From Candidatus Altimarinota bacterium (GTDB lineage: Bacteria > Patescibacteriota > Gracilibacteria > JBDHUY01): a stretch of DNA of 39,211 bases. The position numbers and the translations under genes are program-made. Positions within the stretch are counted from its first letter, which is position 1, and every line of letters starts with the position of its first letter. The DNA is taken from the NCBI GenBank assembly GCA_039809385.1, contig JBDHUY010000015.1, positions 1 to 39,211 on the forward strand, given 5' to 3'. Shown here one piece after another: positions 29,150 through 38,974 of this stretch. Under the pieces are notes generated by a model, which saw only the letters and a program-made list of their open reading frames with translations, was not told the origin of the DNA and searched no databases.

Positions 29150-29239
29150 TGGCGGAAGCGAGAGGATTCGAACCTCCGATACCCGTGAGGGTATACCGCT
29201 TTTCGAGAGCGGCGCCATCAACCACTCGGCCACGCTTCC
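29150..29239 (-). tRNA. tRNA-Ser(CGA)
   Basis: GGAAGCG acceptor stem, anticodon arm CCGCT-CT CGA AA-AGCGG, long variable arm, GGTTCGAATCC, discriminator G, encoded CCA; 90 nt. Confidence 0.97.
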
Positions 29240-30257: not shown

Positions 30258-30344
30258 AGAAGTTAGGGGTTAGAAGCTGGAAGCTACGTAAAAAACTCAA
30301 AAGACACCTTCTGGCTGTAAGCTGTCGGCTGCTAGCTGTCAACT
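30258..30344. repeat. Two 7-nt tandem arrays at the EamA/rlmI convergent junction
   Basis: agaagtt aggggtt agaagct ggaagct (30258-30285) and tctggct gtaagct gtcggct gctagct gtcaact (30310-30344). Confidence 0.7.
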
Positions 30345-31521
30345 ATTCGACATATAACAACAGGCTCTTCAAATACTCCCCTTCCGGATGGTAAATATTG
30401 ACCGGATGATCGGGAGCCAGAATATGCCGGCCGATAATCCGTACCTGCCGGTTTGCCTCGCGCGCGGCCTGAAAGATAACCGTCTGAAAAAGCTTTTCGT
30501 CGACAAAATACGAACAGGAGGAGGTAAGCAAAAGACCTTTGGACGGTATTTTTTGCAAAGCCAGACGGTTAATGTCCTTGTAGCCGCGACAAGCCTTGAC
30601 CACGTCGTTTTTGTTTTTGGCAAATGCCGGCGGGTCGAGAATAATAAAATCATACTCCAAAGCATTCTCGCGCAAGAAAGAAAATACATCTTGAACAAAA
30701 AAATTATTCTCTTTTGTATCGAGCTGATTAGCCTCGAAGTTGGATTTAGCCAGTTCGATCGCCTCAGACGAAATGTCAACCGAATCGACCTGTAGAGCCC
30801 CGCCAAAGCATGCATTGACAGAAAAACCGCCGGAATAAGAAAAACAATTGAGAACTCTTCTTCCCGCCGCATGAGAACGAACGAGGAACCTCATTTCCCG
30901 CTGGTCAAGAAAGAAACCTGTTTTTTGGCCTCGCTCGATATCGACCCAAAAATATAAACCATGCTCAATGACCGGGACGGGATCACACATGGTTCCTTGC
31001 AGGACCCCGAGAAACGGTGCGAGTCCTTCTTCGCGACGAGAAGGGAGATTTGATTTTTCAAATACGAAGCATGAACCGATTTCACGATTCAGCGCGTCGA
31101 GAATATCAAATTTTAAACGCTCCATACCGAGCGTTGATATTTGTATGACCAGTGCGTGGTCATAATAATCGACGATCAGTCCGGGCAGACGGTCTCCTTC
31201 TCCATTGATCAGGCGATAAGCGTTGGTCTCTTCTTTTTGAAAATATGCGCGGCGAAATCGAATTGCGGCAACCACAGCATGATAGATCGATTCAAGCGGA
31301 TCGTCCTCGCCAAAACTGATCATCCGGGCAACAATCGAGCACTTCGAGTTATAATAAGCATGCCCGAGCAGTTCTTTTTCGGGATTATACACAGCTACGA
31401 TATCGCCGTCTTCGATAGGATCGATATGCTGGACCGCGCCGGAAAAGATCCAGTGATGATAATTTTTGAGAGCTTTGTCTCGCCCTTTTTTGAGCGTCAA
31501 TATAGGATAGTCTTTTTTCAT
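30343..31521 (-). CDS. rlmI: RlmI/YccW-family SAM-dependent rRNA methyltransferase
   Basis: PUA-like N-terminus (HHWIFSG), EGDRLPGLIVD, GQKTGFFLDQRE, VLNCFSYSGGF, ILDPPAFAK, SSCS, EGEYLK. Confidence 0.9.
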   Translation of the reverse strand: MKKDYPILTLKKGRDKALKNYHHWIFSGAVQHIDPIEDGDIVAVYNPEKELLGHAYYNSKCSIVARMISFGEDDPLESIYHAVVAAIRFRRAYFQKEETNAYRLINGEGDRLPGLIVDYYDHALVIQISTLGMERLKFDILDALNREIGSCFVFEKSNLPSRREEGLAPFLGVLQGTMCDPVPVIEHGLYFWVDIERGQKTGFFLDQREMRFLVRSHAAGRRVLNCFSYSGGFSVNACFGGALQVDSVDISSEAIELAKSNFEANQLDTKENNFFVQDVFSFLRENALEYDFIILDPPAFAKNKNDVVKACRGYKDINRLALQKIPSKGLLLTSSCSYFVDEKLFQTVIFQAAREANRQVRIIGRHILAPDHPVNIYHPEGEYLKSLLLYVE

Positions 31522-32642
31522 ATGAGTACATAGCTGGTAAGAAGATGCGTAATCTTTACGGTAGCGTCGCGCTGAAACAGCCTGACAGCAGTTTGAACCA
31601 TCCGCACACGTCGGGATTCTTTGGTCCAGGCATCCGAGAGTACCGTAACTCCTTCGCTATCCAGTCGCTCCTGAGGAAGTACCAGGGCGGCTTCGTGTTG
31701 TCGCATAAAATCGGCATTGGCCCCTTGTTCTCCGCGACTTGATGTCACGGGAAGGGGAACCAATAGCATGAGTTTAGACAATACAGCCAGTTCAATAATG
31801 GTGGTAGCTCCGGCCCGTACCATTGCCAGATCGGCCGCTGCATAGATATCGGGAAGCTCTTCTGAAATATATTCGAACGAGCGGTAATTTTTCAGATTTT
31901 TTTGTACTTCATCCCAACTGCAGGGCGAATAGCGGGACTGTTCTTTTTGAAAATCTTTGGTATTGCCCTTCCCGACAAGATGCACGATATTAAAACGCTT
32001 GGTGAGAGTAAACAAATGCTTCCAGACAAATTCGTTCAAGGCGCGCGAGCCTTGTCCTCCTCCCATCACCAGCAAAACCGGCTTCTCTTTTTCCGGAAAA
32101 TTGAGTAAGGCTAGCCCTTTTTCACGATTGCCGTTGCACATGCTTTTCCGAATGGGAAGGCCGGTTAGTATTTCTTTCTCATCATAACGGTCTTTTGGAA
32201 AAGTCAAACACACCTTTTGAGCAATTTTTTTGATCATACTATTAGCTAAACCCGAGACAATATCCGATTCGTGAGTGATAACCGGAACGCGATTTAGCCA
32301 CGCTCCTACAGCTATCGGTAAAGCAATAAATCCCCCCTTGGAGAAAACTACGCGCGGTTTGGTCCTTCGGATAAGCCAAAAACTTTGAAAAATACCAATG
32401 AATACTCGAAAAAAATCTAAAAAATTCTCCCAATCGAAATAGCGTCGTAATTTACCGGCGCTGATCGCGTGAAACGGAATCCGGGCTTGAAATAGGATAT
32501 CCCTTTCCATTCCTTTGTCCGTCCCGACATAAAGAATCTCTTCTAACGTGAGGATTCTTTGATTGATCAGTTCATCGATTACCGCCAGGTTAGGCGTAAT
32601 ATGCCCCCCGGATCCCCCGCCGACGAAGAGTATTTTGACCAT
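31518..32642 (-). CDS. murG: Lipid I N-acetylglucosaminyltransferase MurG
   Basis: GGGSGGHI.P, GKLRRY, SKGGF, HESD, GGGQGS, RAGATT..E, Q..NA. Confidence 0.96.
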   Translation of the reverse strand: MVKILFVGGGSGGHITPNLAVIDELINQRILTLEEILYVGTDKGMERDILFQARIPFHAISAGKLRRYFDWENFLDFFRVFIGIFQSFWLIRRTKPRVVFSKGGFIALPIAVGAWLNRVPVITHESDIVSGLANSMIKKIAQKVCLTFPKDRYDEKEILTGLPIRKSMCNGNREKGLALLNFPEKEKPVLLVMGGGQGSRALNEFVWKHLFTLTKRFNIVHLVGKGNTKDFQKEQSRYSPCSWDEVQKNLKNYRSFEYISEELPDIYAAADLAMVRAGATTIIELAVLSKLMLLVPLPVTSSRGEQGANADFMRQHEAALVLPQERLDSEGVTVLSDAWTKESRRVRMVQTAVRLFQRDATVKITHLLTSYVLI

Positions 32643-33780
32643 GTTGCGTATGTTTCGATATTTGTAAAAGGATACCGGCAGCTATGAGCAGAGCCGTAAG
32701 CGAAGAGCCTCCGTAGCTGATGAACGGTAACGTAATACCGGTAAGCGGCATCAGTTGTATATTGACCGCGATATTGACCAGAGATTGCCACACAAACCAG
32801 GTCGTAATGCCGATCGCCACGAGCGAACTGAAACGATTGGGCGCATTTGTAGCGATCCGGTAACCGCGGTACGCAATAAAGATATACGCGCTCAACAGCA
32901 GGAGCAACCGTATGAAGCCCAGTTCTTCGGCCGTTGCCGAAAAGATGGTATCCCCTTGCACTTCCGGCAGATAGCCGAACTTCTGGACCGACTTGCCGAA
33001 TCCGGCGCCAAAGAGTCCGCCGCTGCCGATAGCGATCAATGCTTGTTGAATCTGCCAGCCGATGTTACGGCTTTTCGGATCGACCGCCGGATCTAAAAAG
33101 ACGTTAAAACGGCTTCGTACATACGGAACCGTTGCCACGACAACCGAGAAAAAGAGTAACGCCAGCAAAAAACCGGTCACCAGATGGAGCATCCGGGCTC
33201 CCGCAATATAATACATCACCACCGCAATCGGAACGATGACCAGAATAGAGCCGAAATCCGGAAGAAGGGCCAATAAAATGACAATCGCTCCCAAAATCAA
33301 TAAAAAAGGCAGGAAGCCGTTCTCAAGCGATTGCAGCTCCTCTTTGCGCCGTTCAAGCCAACGCGCAAAATAGAGTATAATACCGATCTTGGCGATTTCA
33401 ACCGGTTGAATAGAAGGCAAAAGCGGAATATTAAGCCAGCCGGTAGAACCCTTAAGTTTCAACCCAAAATCGGTAAACAGCAACATCAGTAAAATAATAC
33501 TGACAAAGAAAACATACGGTGCGGCTTTGCGCCAAAAAGAGACGGGGACGCGCATAGCCAAAAACCACATCGGCAAGGCCAAAGCCACGTGTCCGAGAGA
33601 ACGCCACAAATAGAAATCGTTACTGGGAGACGGGTAAAGATTGGGAAATTTATCCGCCAATTCTTTGGTAATGTTGTAGGATTCGAAAACACTGACACTC
33701 GAGATCATCACCAGACCGAAAACCACCAGCGCAAATATAACGGTGAACAACGGATAATCGATGGTACCTTCCTGCTTCAT
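32590..33780 (-). CDS. ftsW: SEDS peptidoglycan polymerase FtsW
   Basis: SIQPVEIAK, PDFGS, GSGGLFG.G, LPEVQGDTIF, EELGF, PLTGITLPFISYGGSS; directly upstream of murG. Confidence 0.93.
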   Translation of the reverse strand: MKQEGTIDYPLFTVIFALVVFGLVMISSVSVFESYNITKELADKFPNLYPSPSNDFYLWRSLGHVALALPMWFLAMRVPVSFWRKAAPYVFFVSIILLMLLFTDFGLKLKGSTGWLNIPLLPSIQPVEIAKIGIILYFARWLERRKEELQSLENGFLPFLLILGAIVILLALLPDFGSILVIVPIAVVMYYIAGARMLHLVTGFLLALLFFSVVVATVPYVRSRFNVFLDPAVDPKSRNIGWQIQQALIAIGSGGLFGAGFGKSVQKFGYLPEVQGDTIFSATAEELGFIRLLLLLSAYIFIAYRGYRIATNAPNRFSSLVAIGITTWFVWQSLVNIAVNIQLMPLTGITLPFISYGGSSLTALLIAAGILLQISKHTQHGQNTLRRRGIRGAYYA

Positions 33781-33820
33781 ACAAATACGTTCATTAGTCA
33801 GTATGCGAATAGCACTGCTA

Positions 33821-33848
33821 ATAATACTGTAAGACCGGAAATGAACAA
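33821..33848 (-). promoter_or_regulatory. ftsW-murG-rlmI promoter
   Basis: Minus strand TTGTTC-16 nt-TATTAT. Confidence 0.5.
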
Positions 33849-33875
33849 GGTCAGTTTTTCTTATGAAAAAATATT

Positions 33876-33914
33876 AAAAAAGACGCTATGACTGGGTAGT
33901 CAGGGAGCGTCTTT
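33876..33914 (-). terminator. Intrinsic terminator upstream of the ftsW promoter
   Basis: AAAGACGCT/AGCGTCTTT plus inner TGACT/AGTCA; T6 tail on the minus strand. Confidence 0.7.
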
Positions 33915-33915
33915 C

Positions 33916-34202
33916 TCGAGTGAACCTTATAAGTAGCGGTTTAATGTATAGTTGCTACTCAAGGCGACATCACCCGAACGAAGGGTCACCAACCTTCAGG
34001 TATTACCGTTCATCAAGAGTGAAAAACGGAACCTCTGCCATACTTTGGTTTTATTATCCCAAAATCCGTAAGGGTTGCTTTTGAGCGACTGTATCCGTCC
34101 CGATTTCGAGCTTGACACGATGGTCAATGAAACGGTAAAATACAATCAAGCAATAGAGATTAAAAGTCTTTCTGAGGAAGAATCTTCAGGAAGACTTTTT
34201 TT
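33916..34202 (+). ncRNA. Structured ncRNA candidate A (possibly 6S-like; unassigned)
   Basis: Long irregular stem 34000-34013/34127-34143 with nested helices and a GUAA tetraloop; G-U pairs favour +; ends in a T7 terminator; no ORF. 5' end uncertain. Confidence 0.5.
34162..34202 (+). terminator. Intrinsic terminator (strong on +, weaker on -)
   Basis: AAAAGTCTTTCTGAGGA-AGAA-TCTTCAGGAAGACTTTTTTT. Confidence 0.8.
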
Positions 34203-34481
34203 AAGTCTCCGACGGTGAGGCGGAAACTGATTATCGTACAGCAGAGAAAAAGCAGCATGCAGGAGCCCCGCCCTTGGCGGGGGAGGACGAGTCTATCCGG
34301 TCCGCGGCCAAGATAAGATGCTCGTCCTGTATGCTCCTTTTTCTCTGCGGGGCTGATTTTCAATGATCGTTTGGTTGTGGAGTGAAAGAAATGCGCGGGC
34401 CCGCGCTTCACCCTTCTTTCTTTTTTTATGTTTTTTTATTTTTGAAACCGTGTTTGTGTTCTTTCTTGTTTTTTTTGTTTT
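34203..34481 (-). ncRNA. Structured ncRNA candidate B (unassigned)
   Basis: Minus-strand promoter TTGAAC(34510-34515)-16 nt-TATCAT(34488-34493); A-rich 5' part; 24-bp near-perfect stem 34241-34264/34325-34348 enclosing two GC-rich hairpins. Strand not fully certain. Confidence 0.5.
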
Positions 34482-34647
34482 CAAATCATGATACCTGATT
34501 CAAAAAAAAGTTCAACCAGGAACTATTGAGCAAAACATTATTTTATTATCTTGTATATCTTTATACTTATATGAATCTCTAATGAAAGCCAAATAACACC
34601 CTCTCATAAACACACTTGATACTTTAAAAAATGATATTTTTATATAT

Positions 34648-34680
34648 AAAAAGAGCTCCGATTAATCGCGAGCTCTTTTT
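34648..34680 (-). terminator. Bidirectional intrinsic terminator after the large SLH gene
   Basis: AAAAAGAGCTC-CGATTAATCG-C-GAGCTCTTTTT. Confidence 0.85.
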
Positions 34681-34702
34681 ACTTTCAGGCAGAAAGTCCA
34701 CT

Positions 34703-37700
34703 CTATTGATTTCGATGTAACAAATACTCATAAATCGCCACGGCAACTTCGCCGCGGGTCATCGTACGTTCGGGAAAGAGCGAAGAACCGATATCCGGAA
34801 TAAGGTTATAACGCTGGACAGTACCCGCATAGCGCGCGAACCAATCCGAAGGATGGACGTCATTGAAGTTATACGAGAGATTTTCAGACAACCCGAATGT
34901 CAGAGTCATCATCTTTAAAAATTCAGCCCTTTTAATACCATCCTGCGGCCTGAATGTACCATCCGGATAACCGTTTACAATATTCAAATTGGCAGCTGTG
35001 ATTACAAACTTGGTATACCATTGATTTTCGAGTACATCCGGGAAGCGGCCATTATTACGCACATCCGATACCGAGCTATAACGAGTCAGCAAAAGGAATT
35101 TGGATCCTTCGGCCCGATTCACCAAACGACTTGGTTTAAATTCACCATCGGGAAAGCCCCCGACCACGGCTCTACGATAGAGCTCGGCGGCAGCCATTCC
35201 TTCAAGCGTGTTAAGATTGGTGTCCCTGAAAGGATTGGCAAACGAATTATTATTGACCAGCACCTCATCTTCAAATCCGGCCGGAGGCAACGGGATATTT
35301 CCGCCGCCATCGTTGCTGTTCGTCACGACGATCGTCCCAGTCATACTGGGGTGGATTGAGCAATGATAGGTAAAAGTGCCGGTCTGGTTAAACGTATACC
35401 TGTAGCTTTGATCGGTACTGAGGATGCCGCTTTGAAATGAAAGATTGTCCCCTACTACCGTGTGTTGGGAAGAGTCGCGGTTGATCCAGATAACTGTAGT
35501 ACCTAGCGGAACCGTAATGGTGGAAGGCGAGAAAGTAAAGTTACGGATTTCGATTTGCCGGTTGTTATTTCCATTGCCGGTTGTACCAACATTTACGGTA
35601 AGCGAAGCATTCGCGGTCAACCCCTGGCTGTCGGTCACCGAAAACTTTATGAGGAAGACCCCGCTGCGGTTATAACTATGGGTAAAAGTGGCGGTCTGGT
35701 TAAAACTGCTGCTCAGCACCGAATCGTTGAAAATACTCCCCTCATCTCCCCACTGGACTCGGTAGGACAAGCTTCCGTTCTCCGGGTCGCGAGCTCGCAC
35801 TGAAAAGGTACCGGTTTCATTCAGATTAAGATACGACGGCCCGCTCACGCCATCAATAATGGGGGTACCACTGCCACCGCCACTTGAGGCATTAATCATA
35901 AACGTATTGTCGGATTGATCTGAAACAGTATTAATACGACTGTCGTCAGTCTCGATACGAATACGAAAGTTACTTCCCTGATAGGTACTGCTGGTGGGAA
36001 TAGACCAATTAAAGCGGTTAGTACCATCAAACGAGGTTGTGTTACTGGTAATTTCAGCAGTTTCCGAAAACCCATTGAGCAACTTGATCCTAGTACGGTA
36101 GCCTACGTTTGAACCGGAAATACCGTCGTTAAACGTCCATTCGATGGTCTGAGTATCGCCGCTACGCCAGAACTGGCCGCCATTGGGAGTAACGACCTGG
36201 AGAGAAGCGTTCCCGCTGCCGCCCTGGTTGATACGAAACGTACTGTCGGATTGATCCGATACTGTCGAGATTCGATTGTCGTCGGTCTGGACCTTGATAC
36301 GAAAATTATTGCCCGAATAATTGTTCGAAACGAACCATGTGTAGGAATTGGATGAACCGTCGTACGATGTCGCATTATTGGCAATTGTCAAAACTTCGCT
36401 GTTCCCGTCGAGAAGGATAATGCGCGTACGATAGCCTACGTTACCGCCCGATATGCCATCGTCGAACGACCAGCGGATATCGTAGTTTTGTCCCGAAGAG
36501 AGCGATTCGCCCCCATTCGGTTGCTGTACGCGAATAAAAGAATTTCCGCTTCCACCTCCGGTCGTATTGATCGAAAAAACGTTATCCGATTCGTCTGACA
36601 CGGTCGAGATACGACTGTCGTCGCTCTGAACCCGAATCCGGAAATTGTTTCCCTGATAGGTATTGCTGGAGGGAATAAGCCAGGTAAACCGGTTCGTCCC
36701 GTCATACGATGTCGTATTGGATGTTATTTCGGCTACTTCGGAAAAGCCGTTCAATAATTTGATGCGGGTACGATAGCCCAGATTGGAAGAAGATAGACCG
36801 TCGTTAAACGTCCACTCGATCGTCTGGGTATCACCCTGACGCCATACTTGCCCGCCATTTGGAGTAATCACTTGCACAAAAGCGCCGCTGCTACCGCCTT
36901 GGTTGATCCGAAACGTACTATCCGATTGATCCGATACTGTCGCGATTCGACTATCGTCGGTCTGGACCTTGATCCGAAAATTGTTTCCCGAATAATTACC
37001 GGGAACGGACCATGTATAGCTATTGTCTGAACCATCGGAAGAAAAAGCATTACTGGTGAGGGTCAAGACCTCACTATTGCCGTCCATCAACATCACACGG
37101 GTTCGATAACTATTGTTCCCGCTGGTCCCATCGTCAAAGAACCAGCGAATCTGATATGATTGTCCCGCAGAAAGGAATTCTCCGCCGTTGGGTTGTTGAA
37201 CGCGGACAGTAACACCGGACGAACCGTTTCCATTGATGCTGAACGTCCCGTCGGACTGATCCTGCACAAACGGAACGCTTGAATCGTTCATCTGAATGCG
37301 AATCTTATAATTGCTCCCCTGGAAATTATTGGGTACGAGCCAGGAATAGGAATTGGATCCATCGTGCGACGTGGCGCTATCGGTAACTGTCAGAACCTCC
37401 TGATTTGCGTCGAGCATAGTGATTCTGGTCCGGTAACTTAAACTGCTGCTTCGTCCATCCTGATAGTCCCATTCAATCGAATAAAACTGATTAGGTTGCA
37501 AATTTTCTCCACCGTTGGGACGAGTAACTCGAATAAAGCTTCCATTATTGTTGCCGTTCCCGCGGATTTCAAAAGAGCTATTGGAAATATCGTCGGCAAA
37601 ATCTATGCGATTATCATCAATCGAAATTCGGATCCGGTAGTCTGTACCGGCAAGGTACGTTGGGATATTCCAGGAAAAAGAATTCGTGCCGTCGGAAGAA

Positions 37701-38974
37701 AAAGTAGAATCCGTTACAGTCAAAATTTCACTACCGCCATCCAGAAGTACGATCCGGGTACGATAACTAGAGGCGCTGTTATTGATGCCGTCGTCAAACT
37801 GCCAACGGATCGAGACTTGATTGCCGTTATTATACGATTCCCCGCCATTGGGTGTTTCTACCAGAAGATAGGTATCTCCACCACTGCTGCCGCCGGTAAC
37901 CCGGAACGATACCGAATTGCTGAACCCGTTACCGTTCTCCACCGCAACATTATAATCCCCGGGCAGAACGTCGTAAAACGTCTGGCCGTTACACGATGAG
38001 GAATTCGAACAACGAATACGGGAAGGGACGGTAAACGTTAAACTCGTACTGCTGCTGGAAAATACATCTTCGATAATGCCGTTTCCAAAACGAATGTCGT
38101 TATTGGAATTAAAACCGTTTCCATATAACGTCACTTGTCTCCCGGTAGGTCCCGAAGAAGGCGAGATACTGTCGATATAAACCTGCTGGTTGGTGCCGCC
38201 GGCAACGATCCGAAAATTACTGTCCGATTCATCTTGCACGTCGCCGCTAAAACCGCTTAAACGTACCTTGATCCGGTAACGGTCATCATTATCCAAGCTG
38301 GTCGGCACAAACCATTGAAAACTGTTGTCACCGACATAACTGGTCACGTCGCTGGTAATTTCGCGGACTTCGTCGCCCGAACGAAACAATTTGATCACCG
38401 TGCGATAACTGTCGAAACTGTTGGAAGCGTTGACGCGCCAGCGGATCGAATAGGAGCTGCCTTTGGAAACCACCTCTCCTCCGTCAGGCGAGAGTACTTC
38501 AACATTCGGAATTCCGCTCCCGCCTCCTCCGCCAGACGAATTGATCGAAAAATCGCGGCTCTCCGCTTCGGGATAATAACTCGTACCGAACTCGTTGGAA
38601 AAGGACTGATTGAGTTTGACGGCAAAACGGTAATTATTTCCCGAGAGATCCGAAGGAATGGTCCACGTATATTCGTTGGAACCGCTCCGGCTGCTCGCAT
38701 TGGTCGTAATCGAACGGATTTCGGTCGAAGAGCCGTTGCTGCTTCTCTGCCGTAAGGACAGAGTCGTAGGGACTGAGCCGAAACCGGTATAGTTCATCAA
38801 TGTCCAGCGGATCGTGTAACTTTGATTGTTACGCAGTGCTGTGCCGCTTACGTCCGGTGTCGTAACATCGAGACTGGGTCCGGAGAAGATGGCACCGGCA
38901 AAAGGAGGGTTGGTAGCTGGAAAAACGAACCCCGCCAGCAAGAGCAAAACCAGCAATCTGGAAATGGTTTTCAT
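34703..38974 (-). CDS. Large surface protein: 8 PxGG-type Ig-like repeats, IPT/TIG, PKD, cupredoxin, 3x SLH
   Basis: Signal peptide; repeated V..PNGG(E/Q)...I.W...Y.W...YRIRI...D.SD..F.I units; IDSISPSSG..G..VTLYG; WGD...HSY..SG; HTV...YHCSIHPSM; NRAE/KRAE/TRGE SLH motifs. Confidence 0.92.
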   Translation of the reverse strand: MKTISRLLVLLLLAGFVFPATNPPFAGAIFSGPSLDVTTPDVSGTALRNNQSYTIRWTLMNYTGFGSVPTTLSLRQRSSNGSSTEIRSITTNASSRSGSNEYTWTIPSDLSGNNYRFAVKLNQSFSNEFGTSYYPEAESRDFSINSSGGGGGSGIPNVEVLSPDGGEVVSKGSSYSIRWRVNASNSFDSYRTVIKLFRSGDEVREITSDVTSYVGDNSFQWFVPTSLDNDDRYRIKVRLSGFSGDVQDESDSNFRIVAGGTNQQVYIDSISPSSGPTGRQVTLYGNGFNSNNDIRFGNGIIEDVFSSSSTSLTFTVPSRIRCSNSSSCNGQTFYDVLPGDYNVAVENGNGFSNSVSFRVTGGSSGGDTYLLVETPNGGESYNNGNQVSIRWQFDDGINNSASSYRTRIVLLDGGSEILTVTDSTFSSDGTNSFSWNIPTYLAGTDYRIRISIDDNRIDFADDISNSSFEIRGNGNNNGSFIRVTRPNGGENLQPNQFYSIEWDYQDGRSSSLSYRTRITMLDANQEVLTVTDSATSHDGSNSYSWLVPNNFQGSNYKIRIQMNDSSVPFVQDQSDGTFSINGNGSSGVTVRVQQPNGGEFLSAGQSYQIRWFFDDGTSGNNSYRTRVMLMDGNSEVLTLTSNAFSSDGSDNSYTWSVPGNYSGNNFRIKVQTDDSRIATVSDQSDSTFRINQGGSSGAFVQVITPNGGQVWRQGDTQTIEWTFNDGLSSSNLGYRTRIKLLNGFSEVAEITSNTTSYDGTNRFTWLIPSSNTYQGNNFRIRVQSDDSRISTVSDESDNVFSINTTGGGSGNSFIRVQQPNGGESLSSGQNYDIRWSFDDGISGGNVGYRTRIILLDGNSEVLTIANNATSYDGSSNSYTWFVSNNYSGNNFRIKVQTDDNRISTVSDQSDSTFRINQGGSGNASLQVVTPNGGQFWRSGDTQTIEWTFNDGISGSNVGYRTRIKLLNGFSETAEITSNTTSFDGTNRFNWSIPTSSTYQGSNFRIRIETDDSRINTVSDQSDNTFMINASSGGGSGTPIIDGVSGPSYLNLNETGTFSVRARDPENGSLSYRVQWGDEGSIFNDSVLSSSFNQTATFTHSYNRSGVFLIKFSVTDSQGLTANASLTVNVGTTGNGNNNRQIEIRNFTFSPSTITVPLGTTVIWINRDSSQHTVVGDNLSFQSGILSTDQSYRYTFNQTGTFTYHCSIHPSMTGTIVVTNSNDGGGNIPLPPAGFEDEVLVNNNSFANPFRDTNLNTLEGMAAAELYRRAVVGGFPDGEFKPSRLVNRAEGSKFLLLTRYSSVSDVRNNGRFPDVLENQWYTKFVITAANLNIVNGYPDGTFRPQDGIKRAEFLKMMTLTFGLSENLSYNFNDVHPSDWFARYAGTVQRYNLIPDIGSSLFPERTMTRGEVAVAIYEYLLHRNQ

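Follow-up and report, generated by a model that had tools for sequence, protein, structure and literature searches.

The stretch of DNA analysed here, below called the window, is a contig of 39,211 nucleotides from Candidatus Altimarinota bacterium (JBDHUY010000015.1), and the element in question lies at 34203-34515, where an earlier note, made from the sequence alone, had placed a structured RNA called "RNA B". We think it quite probable that this flagged stretch is the promoter and the 5' half of one stand-alone structured non-coding RNA (ncRNA) gene of about 608 nt on the minus strand, running from 34481 to a terminator at 33913-33874, and the two "structured RNAs" of the earlier note are then most likely one transcript. 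From 5' to 3' such an RNA would consist of a leader, hairpin P1, rod P2, hairpin P3, an optional hairpin P4, a central domain, a variable hairpin, and a 3' domain with the terminator. The family appears to be new, as no homology to described families was found, while its general kind, the stand-alone structured ncRNA, is already known. Among the genomes searched, the RNA is restricted to one small order of Peribacteria-type bacteria, which belong to the candidate phyla radiation.

Extent and homologues of the unit

The window's own 1.87-Mb assembly (G000) holds two copies of the element in total according to both blastn and nhmmer, and they are 74% identical; the second, the paralogue, is found on contig C12. 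The nhmmer homology envelope corresponds to 33871-34540 in the window, i.e. it takes in the tail of the terminator at one end and some 25 nt beyond the -35 box at the other, and the conserved unit reaches 330 nt beyond the flagged coordinates, to about 33872. Since the ends of the homology coincide with a promoter-like site and a terminator on the minus strand, the whole is best regarded as a single transcription unit, about 608 nt long (34481 to ~33874). The unit of the paralogue is about 520 nt.

A third sequence was found with covariance models. Model R1, which describes the central domain with 128 positions and 32 pairs, matches, among 150 relatives, a Peribacteria metagenome-assembled genome (G001) of the same family and another genus (44.9 bits, E 1.6e-6), and model R2, of the 3' domain, matches the adjacent stretch of the same contig (67.4 bits, E 2e-15). 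Four other R1 matches among these 150 relatives had E values of 0.36-0.67 and were disregarded. In the collection the order comprises only G000 and G001, and the RNA is present in both of them (2/2). The homologue search in genomes of the candidate phyla radiation, which the earlier note had proposed, thus gave a partial orthologue in G001, and none in the 149 other genomes of the class searched with R2 or in 150 genomes from across the phylum searched with the three-sequence model R3. There was no match in phage and plasmid collections. A conserved pattern of all three sequences had one match in genome_contigs, the G001 contig itself, and none in metagenome_contigs or viral_contigs, and the first conserved pattern that was used had none in metagenome_contigs or genome_contigs. 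The G001 contig covers the RNA only from the 3' arm of the rod onwards; a blastn search with the start of this contig returned no overlapping or second contig, and the whole RNA, when used to seek the 5' half in G001, gave chance matches only (E at least 0.31).

When 33871-34260 was compared with 301 genomes of the class by blastn, the only matches were the own genome and a 27-nt stretch in one other genome (G034). The same hairpin match came up when 34140-34520 was compared with 41 relatives, and apart from it the matches in 10 genomes other than G000 were due to the T-rich low-complexity tract. The 27-nt match was rejected, as the sequence in G034 is not a hairpin and has no T run after it. 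The T-rich/A-rich tract at 34393-34443 has a k-mer depth of 132-597 that derives from unrelated 31-nt contigs of metagenome runs, and it needs masking in homology searches.

From sequence signals we infer a transcription start near 34481 on the minus strand as well as the 3' end. The promoter and start are those of the earlier note: a scan finds the sigma-70-like site TTGAAC-16-TATCAT at 34488-34515 on the minus strand with 9/12 matches, and hexamers recur at the aligned position of the paralogue as TTGCCA-16-TACTAT, where the T-run of the spacer and the first transcribed bases are also conserved. The A-rich leader that the same note had described is about 68 nt long (34414-34481, minus strand) and mostly unpaired in the folds; that of the paralogue is shorter and less A-rich, and only the first dozen or so bases are common to both copies. 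At the other end, the terminator (33874-33913, minus strand) consists of an 8-bp stem with a 5-bp hairpin inside it and a U run after it. Both terminator and U run are found in 3/3 sequences, with T runs of 6, 6 and 8 and with compensatory changes in the stem, among them one from G-C to A-T. The sequence signals that generally mark an ncRNA gene are thereby in place, with promoter-like hexamers in the two copies that have a 5' end (2/2), and a terminal hairpin with a U run in all three.

It is hardly probable at all, in our view, that the unit is something other than an RNA gene, such as a MITE-like remnant (miniature inverted-repeat transposable element), a gene for a small protein or a leader that regulates ftsW in cis. 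There are indeed two copies in one genome, but the multicopy distribution that the earlier note regarded as a sign of a MITE did not appear: the copies are only two, 74% identical, and when their aligned ends were judged by eye no terminal inverted repeats were seen. As there are only two copies in 1.87 Mb and a soil relative keeps the ftsW neighbour, with which the locus is collinear, a MITE or other multicopy repeat was rejected. The position would suit a leader, as the unit shares the strand of ftsW and is only 90 nt upstream of it, but a terminator closes the unit, and the three loci have different gene neighbours; downstream lie ftsW in the window, a convergent hydrolase gene on C12 and an unannotated open reading frame (ORF) in G001. 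As for a protein, there are open frames across the region, but the substitutions show no codon-position bias: the differences between the two copies are distributed flatly over the codon positions (15/14/14 and 11/12/13), and the best shared frames either have 43% amino-acid identity, as against a mean column identity of 84% for the DNA (alignment A2), or are broken by indels. A coding gene was rejected on these grounds and for want of a conserved ORF. The ORFs that overlap the flagged stretch are Lys-rich or Phe-rich low-complexity reads and, as the earlier note remarked, the structure is a GC-rich island in AT-rich sequence, with a GC content of 0.57-0.61 at 34200-34349 compared with 0.23-0.32 at 34400-34699. 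The asymmetry of G.U pairs and the compensatory changes described below also point to RNA.

Structure, covariation and strand

The comparison with shuffled sequences that had been suggested for both strands came out in favour of a structured molecule. The region 34150-34520 folds with -112.2 kcal/mol on the minus strand (z -5.21) and with -126.7 kcal/mol on the plus strand (z -4.52), and on neither strand did any of 100 dinucleotide shuffles (0/100) reach the energy. Folded at full length as minus strand, the window copy has a z of -7.60 (620 nt, 20 shuffles) and the paralogue one of -6.61 (544 nt, 100 shuffles). Alignment of the 5' half with MAFFT and RNAalifold on both strands was spoiled by a large indel in the rod, as was a ribosum-weighted alifold of the whole unit, and for the 5' half folds of each hairpin were used instead.

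Pairing was counted in alignments of the three sequences. Alignment A12, of the central domain, has 32 pairs, of which 9 are changed on both sides, and 94.8% of its cells are paired, and alignment A13, of the 3' domain and terminator, has 38 pairs with 97.3% of the cells paired and 13 changed on both sides; no shuffle out of 500 did as well in either case, and when the 3' partners were slid by 1-3 columns, pairing in A12 and A13 fell to 24-49%. In hairpin P3 (A9) there are 8 pairs with 91.7% of the cells paired and 3 pairs changed on both sides, a result that 77/500 shuffles also reach. Taken together, all 78 modelled pairs are 95.7% paired over the three sequences, and 25 pairs stay paired through two-sided changes. 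With three sequences, two alignments that had been fitted to the models, and shuffles that take no account of relatedness, the covariation figures show consistency, not proof.

Hairpin P1 (34380-34413, minus strand) is the helix that had been seen around a palindrome at 34393-34406. It has a 7-bp outer stem with one G.U pair, an internal loop, a 5-bp GC tip and a GGCC loop, and it is kept through compensatory changes in the paralogue, where it has an 8-bp outer stem, also with one G.U, a 3-bp tip and an identical GGCC apical loop. The predicted energy on the minus and the plus strand is -14.8 and -14.2 kcal/mol, respectively, in the window and -12.2 and -8.5 kcal/mol in the paralogue, and the G.U pairs of the outer stem become A.C if read on the plus strand. 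The linker between P1 and the rod (34349-34379, minus strand) contains a conserved stretch of about 15 nt in the two-copy alignment A1. P3 (34204-34228, minus strand), the GTTTCCG/CGGAGAC hairpin of the earlier note, has the invariant loop motif TCACC; two of its pairs are compensatory between the two copies, and in both of them it is more stable on the minus strand.

The rod P2 (34241-34348, minus strand) is formed by arms of 24 nt each, 34241-34264 and 34325-34348, which are 22/24 (92%) complementary just as first described. It has a 12-bp basal stem with a 5-bp extension, and a variable interior in which the two enclosed hairpins, CCCCGCC/GGCGGGG and AGGACGAG/CTCGTCCT, lie where they had been reported. 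The basal 12-14 bp are kept in the paralogue with a compensatory change from A-T to G-C, whereas the interior, with both enclosed hairpins and the AGGA/TCCT alternatives, is replaced there by a single hairpin. In a relative from a hot spring, both arms of the CCCCGCC/GGCGGGG hairpin have lost 2 nt each, in a matching way, and one further nucleotide is deleted at the junction. The earlier note had proposed a switchable junction, in which TCCT at 34325-28 could pair with either of two AGGA copies (34261-64 and 34284-87). All these motifs are present in the window, but since the paralogue replaces the interior and the near relative has indels there, the idea of a conserved switch was not borne out. 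We read the interior as a variable expansion, which might still serve as a switch within one lineage.

The central domain (34035-34160, minus strand) is made up in model R1 of nested long-range helices, an internal hairpin and long invariant single strands. It is followed by the variable hairpin (34000-34034, minus strand), the position of which is kept among the homologues while its sequence is replaced; in the paralogue it is a 7-bp GC stem, and in G001 its stem carries a loop that reads TTCG on the RNA-sense strand. The 3' domain (33914-33998, minus strand) consists in model R2 of a hairpin with an invariant GGTG in its loop, beyond which lies a long hairpin with bulges (helices b, c and d). 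The loop motifs TCACC of P3 and GGTG of the 3' domain are invariant in 3/3 sequences, and TCACC is complementary to GGTG(A), with 5 bp possible in each of the G000 copies and 4 bp in G001. We propose that the P3 loop pairs with the loop of the first 3'-domain hairpin, which would dock the 5' half onto the 3' domain. Two other pairings that occurred in the folds were dropped, a long-range helix 34410-34420/33976-33986 that is not kept in the paralogue, and an A-U pairing between leader and tail that carries little information.

The earlier note regarded the strand evidence as mixed, and for the rod of the window copy it is, with -62.0 kcal/mol on the plus strand and -57.9 kcal/mol on the minus strand; the comparison of homologues resolves the matter in favour of the minus strand. 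Among 233 cells there are 25 G.U against 6 A.C, and 95.7% of them are paired when read as minus-sense but 87.6% as plus-sense, and this excess of G.U over A.C favours the minus strand as that of the RNA. Some signals do not depend on the structures having been derived on the minus strand, namely the U run (3/3), which in all three sequences adjoins the terminal hairpin on the minus strand only, the TTCG loop of G001, the stabilities of P1 and P3, and the loss of the sole plus-only hairpin, 34073-34090, which is not kept in G001. An RNA on the plus strand, from about 34148 or 34203 to the palindrome with the T-rich tract at 34393-34440 as terminator, would agree with the lower fold energy of 34150-34520 (-126.7 kcal/mol), with the T-rich sequence that follows the palindrome on that strand and with the window-copy rod. 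It is nevertheless very improbable, considering the G.U pairs, the plus-only hairpin and that P1, P3 and the rod of the paralogue are all weaker on the plus strand, and also that the limits of the homology match minus-strand signals.

The stretch is present in part in 20 public sequencing runs, four of which were compared; the parts without contig cover, and the small shares of matching words in the other runs, are uninformative either way. A soil contig (X13) is collinear with the window from ftsW through 34205, and has 21 listed differences in the ~110-nt flank 33763-33874 (19 of them outside the RNA) compared with 15 in 33876-34205. None of these 15 is in the 70 pairs of R1 and R2, in P3 or in P4; 12 are unpaired and 3 are in the apex of the variable hairpin. 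About 59% of the positions in 33876-34205 are paired, and the differences form roughly six clusters, which makes the effective sample small.

Hairpin P4, antisense signals and the surroundings of the unit

Hairpin P4 (34162-34199) is flanked by an A run and a T run and has no counterpart in G001. In both copies the plus strand has an advantage of about 6 kcal/mol (-21.6 and -15.1 kcal/mol on plus and minus in the window, -15.6 and -9.8 kcal/mol in the paralogue), and a T run comes after the hairpin on that strand, with seven T in the window and six in the paralogue. There is also a promoter-like site on the plus strand, TTGACA-18-TAAAAT at 34112-34141, with 11/12 matches and situated inside the central-domain helices. 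It recurs at the homologous place as TTGACA-17-TAAAAT in the paralogue and as TTGACG-17-TATAAT in G001, again with 11/12 matches each.

These signals could mean that the locus is a sense/antisense module, in which a plus-strand RNA of about 55 nt, from near 34148 to P4 and its seven T, pairs with the middle of the long RNA, either for self-regulation or in the manner of a type I toxin-antitoxin or a plasmid RNAI/RNAII pair. The features in favour are sequence signals, i.e. the promoter-like site in 3/3 sequences, with a perfect TATAAT in G001, and the plus-strand terminator-like hairpin in 2/3. We consider it rather unlikely. The conservation of the site can be explained by the RNA structure alone, because its bases sit in covarying helices, and the change from TAAAAT to TATAAT is matched by a change in the helix partner. 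G001 has the promoter-like site, but neither P4 nor a downstream T run, and a conserved small toxin ORF was not found. A type I toxin-antitoxin system was rejected, the shared frames being 43% identical or broken.

P4 is also where the transcript would end if there were two minus-strand RNAs, "RNA B" from 34481 to about 34160 and a second RNA at 34160-33874. With its 15 pairs and -15.1 kcal/mol on the minus strand, an A run before it and TTTT after it, P4 could be imagined as a terminator, but the T are just four, and the scan of 33600-34900 gave no promoter-like site for a second minus-strand RNA. In G001, moreover, P4 is absent and P3 is joined to the central domain by a linker of about 12 nt. 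An RNA library supplies a further point: in a metatranscriptome library, a relative is represented by a 247-nt contig (X20) that spans 33987-34232 and with it P4, albeit with only 29 nt on the far side. Two RNAs are thus improbable, and the separate ~300-nt RNA of the earlier note is instead the 5' half of the ~608-nt unit, as G001 runs P3 straight into the downstream domain.

A number of points speak against the single minus-strand RNA gene that we prefer and should be weighed with it. The family rests on three sequences, two of them paralogues in one genome, and G001 is without the whole 5' half; P1 and the rod are known from two sequences only, because the contig of G001 begins inside the RNA. 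The G.U count is biased, since the minus strand was used to derive the structures and also two of the three alignments that were counted. In the computed energies the rod of the window copy is better on the plus strand, and so is P4 in both copies, with its T run on that side. Promoter-like sites are no commoner in 33600-34900 than in shuffles (2 observed, 2.6 +/- 1.8 in the shuffled sequences), and the minus-strand site alone is not significant. The proposed pairing of TCACC with GGTG involves invariant bases, and hence it would have no support from covariation. The list of X13 differences contains 36 of the 38, with two not listed, and X20, the sole record from an RNA library, reveals neither the strand nor the ends of a transcript and could derive from DNA, which makes it a weak hint. 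The function, that of a stand-alone scaffold RNA, is a guess.

The locus of the RNA is within a 922-nt gap (33781-34702) between ftsW and the stop of a 1,423-aa ORF. The FtsW-family gene (PF01098) is at 32590-33780 on the minus strand. Together with murG (31518-33780 for the two) and a gene for an RlmI-like PUA/SAM methyltransferase (30343-31521), it lies downstream of the RNA on the minus strand, with overlapping stop and start codons. As these genes overlap on the same strand, the RNA heads a block of cell-wall and division genes, in the window copy only. Upstream, the 1,423-aa ORF (34703-38974, minus strand) has repeated modules of about 110 aa that are rich in Ser, Asn, Gly and Thr, and a signal-peptide-like start, and it probably encodes a surface protein. 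About 25 nt past its stop there is a perfect GAGCTC/GAGCTC hairpin (34648-34680) flanked by an A run and a T run, which looks like a two-way intrinsic terminator between this ORF and the RNA promoter; it is not listed by the scan that gave the promoter-like sites. For annotation, our reading would turn the ~920-nt "spacer" upstream of ftsW into a gene.

Known RNA families and possible function

The author of the earlier note recognised no family, and the Rfam scans of the window region and both homologous loci are blank as well. With Rfam 15 the whole window gave tRNA only, a tRNA-Ser (anticodon CGA) at 29150-29239 on the minus strand that is also the sole Rfam or ARAGORN match in the window. 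At E <= 10, 33700-34800 had 21 weak matches, the best with 24.5 bits against a cut-off of 60, and the loci of the paralogue and G001 had none at E <= 0.1. Weak matches to the greA leader and SpF11 at 34037-34202 merely fit a hairpin with a T run and were rejected. In the parts of the literature that were accessible, no structured ncRNA from Peregrinibacteria or Patescibacteria was found.

The common housekeeping RNAs were rejected one by one. For 6S RNA, RF00013 had no match in the own genome at E <= 1, while control genomes were positive, and none in the region, and for the RNA of the signal recognition particle (SRP), RF00169 and RF01854 had none in the own genome and none in the region. RF00169 at E <= 0.01 matched 0/26 genomes of the class, the own genome and 25 relatives, compared with 12/14 control genomes, and the large SRP model was also blank in the own genome; it may be that RF00169 is blind in this lineage, with an SRP RNA too divergent for the models. 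The genome's RNase P RNA is on contig C3 (175.3 bits), and its candidate for transfer-messenger RNA (tmRNA), found with ARAGORN, is on contig C8. This candidate, which lies outside the window (C8:28716-29154, minus strand), has an unusual tag peptide of 24 residues.

If the unit is an RNA gene, our guess would be a folded scaffold that works in trans, by binding proteins or through an RNA-only architecture, and not the leader of an mRNA. Binding surfaces could then be provided by the invariant loops and by the long, equally invariant single strands of the central domain, and the palindromic GGCC loop of P1 might, as pure speculation, support self-association. A bolder version is a self-contained RNA machine, an order-specific ornate RNA of about 600 nt and of no described family that would either form an RNA-only assembly, by GGCC self-association and a TCACC-GGTGA clamp, or be the sense RNA set by an antisense RNA from the embedded promoter; this we regard as unlikely. 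Should it be true, two diverged paralogues in a 1.9-Mb genome imply a function worth duplicating. The family has a size (~520-610 nt) and clear domains that suit in vitro transcription, chemical probing and cryo-EM, and the two paralogues are a natural comparison of which parts are dispensable.

Some bacteria have two paralogues of 6S RNA, and the RNA described here resembles 6S RNA in being a stand-alone RNA with a long rod-like helix. It is however three times longer and multi-domain, and the interior of the rod, which in 6S RNA is the functional bubble, is not conserved between the copies. With sense/antisense pairs, such as type I toxin-antitoxin systems and RNAI/RNAII, it would have in common a long structured RNA to which a short antisense RNA may belong, the latter with a strong promoter-like site of its own and a hairpin that could terminate in both directions, but it has no conserved small hydrophobic ORF, and the antisense terminator is missing in G001.

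Large, intricately folded RNAs of obscure function are few in bacteria; OLE, ROOL, GOLLD, HEARO and raiA are among them, and each has opened new biology. The RNA in question would be a large ornate RNA from the candidate phyla radiation. OLE RNA (ornate, large, extremophilic) is Rfam RF01071 and is associated with oapA/oapB. In size and general build the RNA is like OLE, being a stand-alone structured ncRNA of about 600 nt with long invariant single strands between covarying helices and with a function that is not evident from the sequence. It differs from OLE in having no Rfam match and in its host, which belongs to the candidate phyla radiation instead of the Gram-positive extremophiles, and its neighbours with Pfam matches are FtsW, MurG, a methyltransferase and a hydrolase (the 1,423-aa ORF was outside the Pfam scan). 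OLE is described as a ribonucleoprotein RNA of about 600 nt (PMC9723947, PMC12265935), and ROOL and GOLLD as large ornate RNAs that form RNA-only homo-oligomers (PMC12286853). Compared with ROOL and GOLLD, the RNA is without a match in Rfam, in the phage and plasmid collections or, for one conserved pattern, in viral contigs, but like them it would be a large ornate bacterial RNA, and the palindromic GGCC loop that both paralogues carry could in principle let it self-associate.

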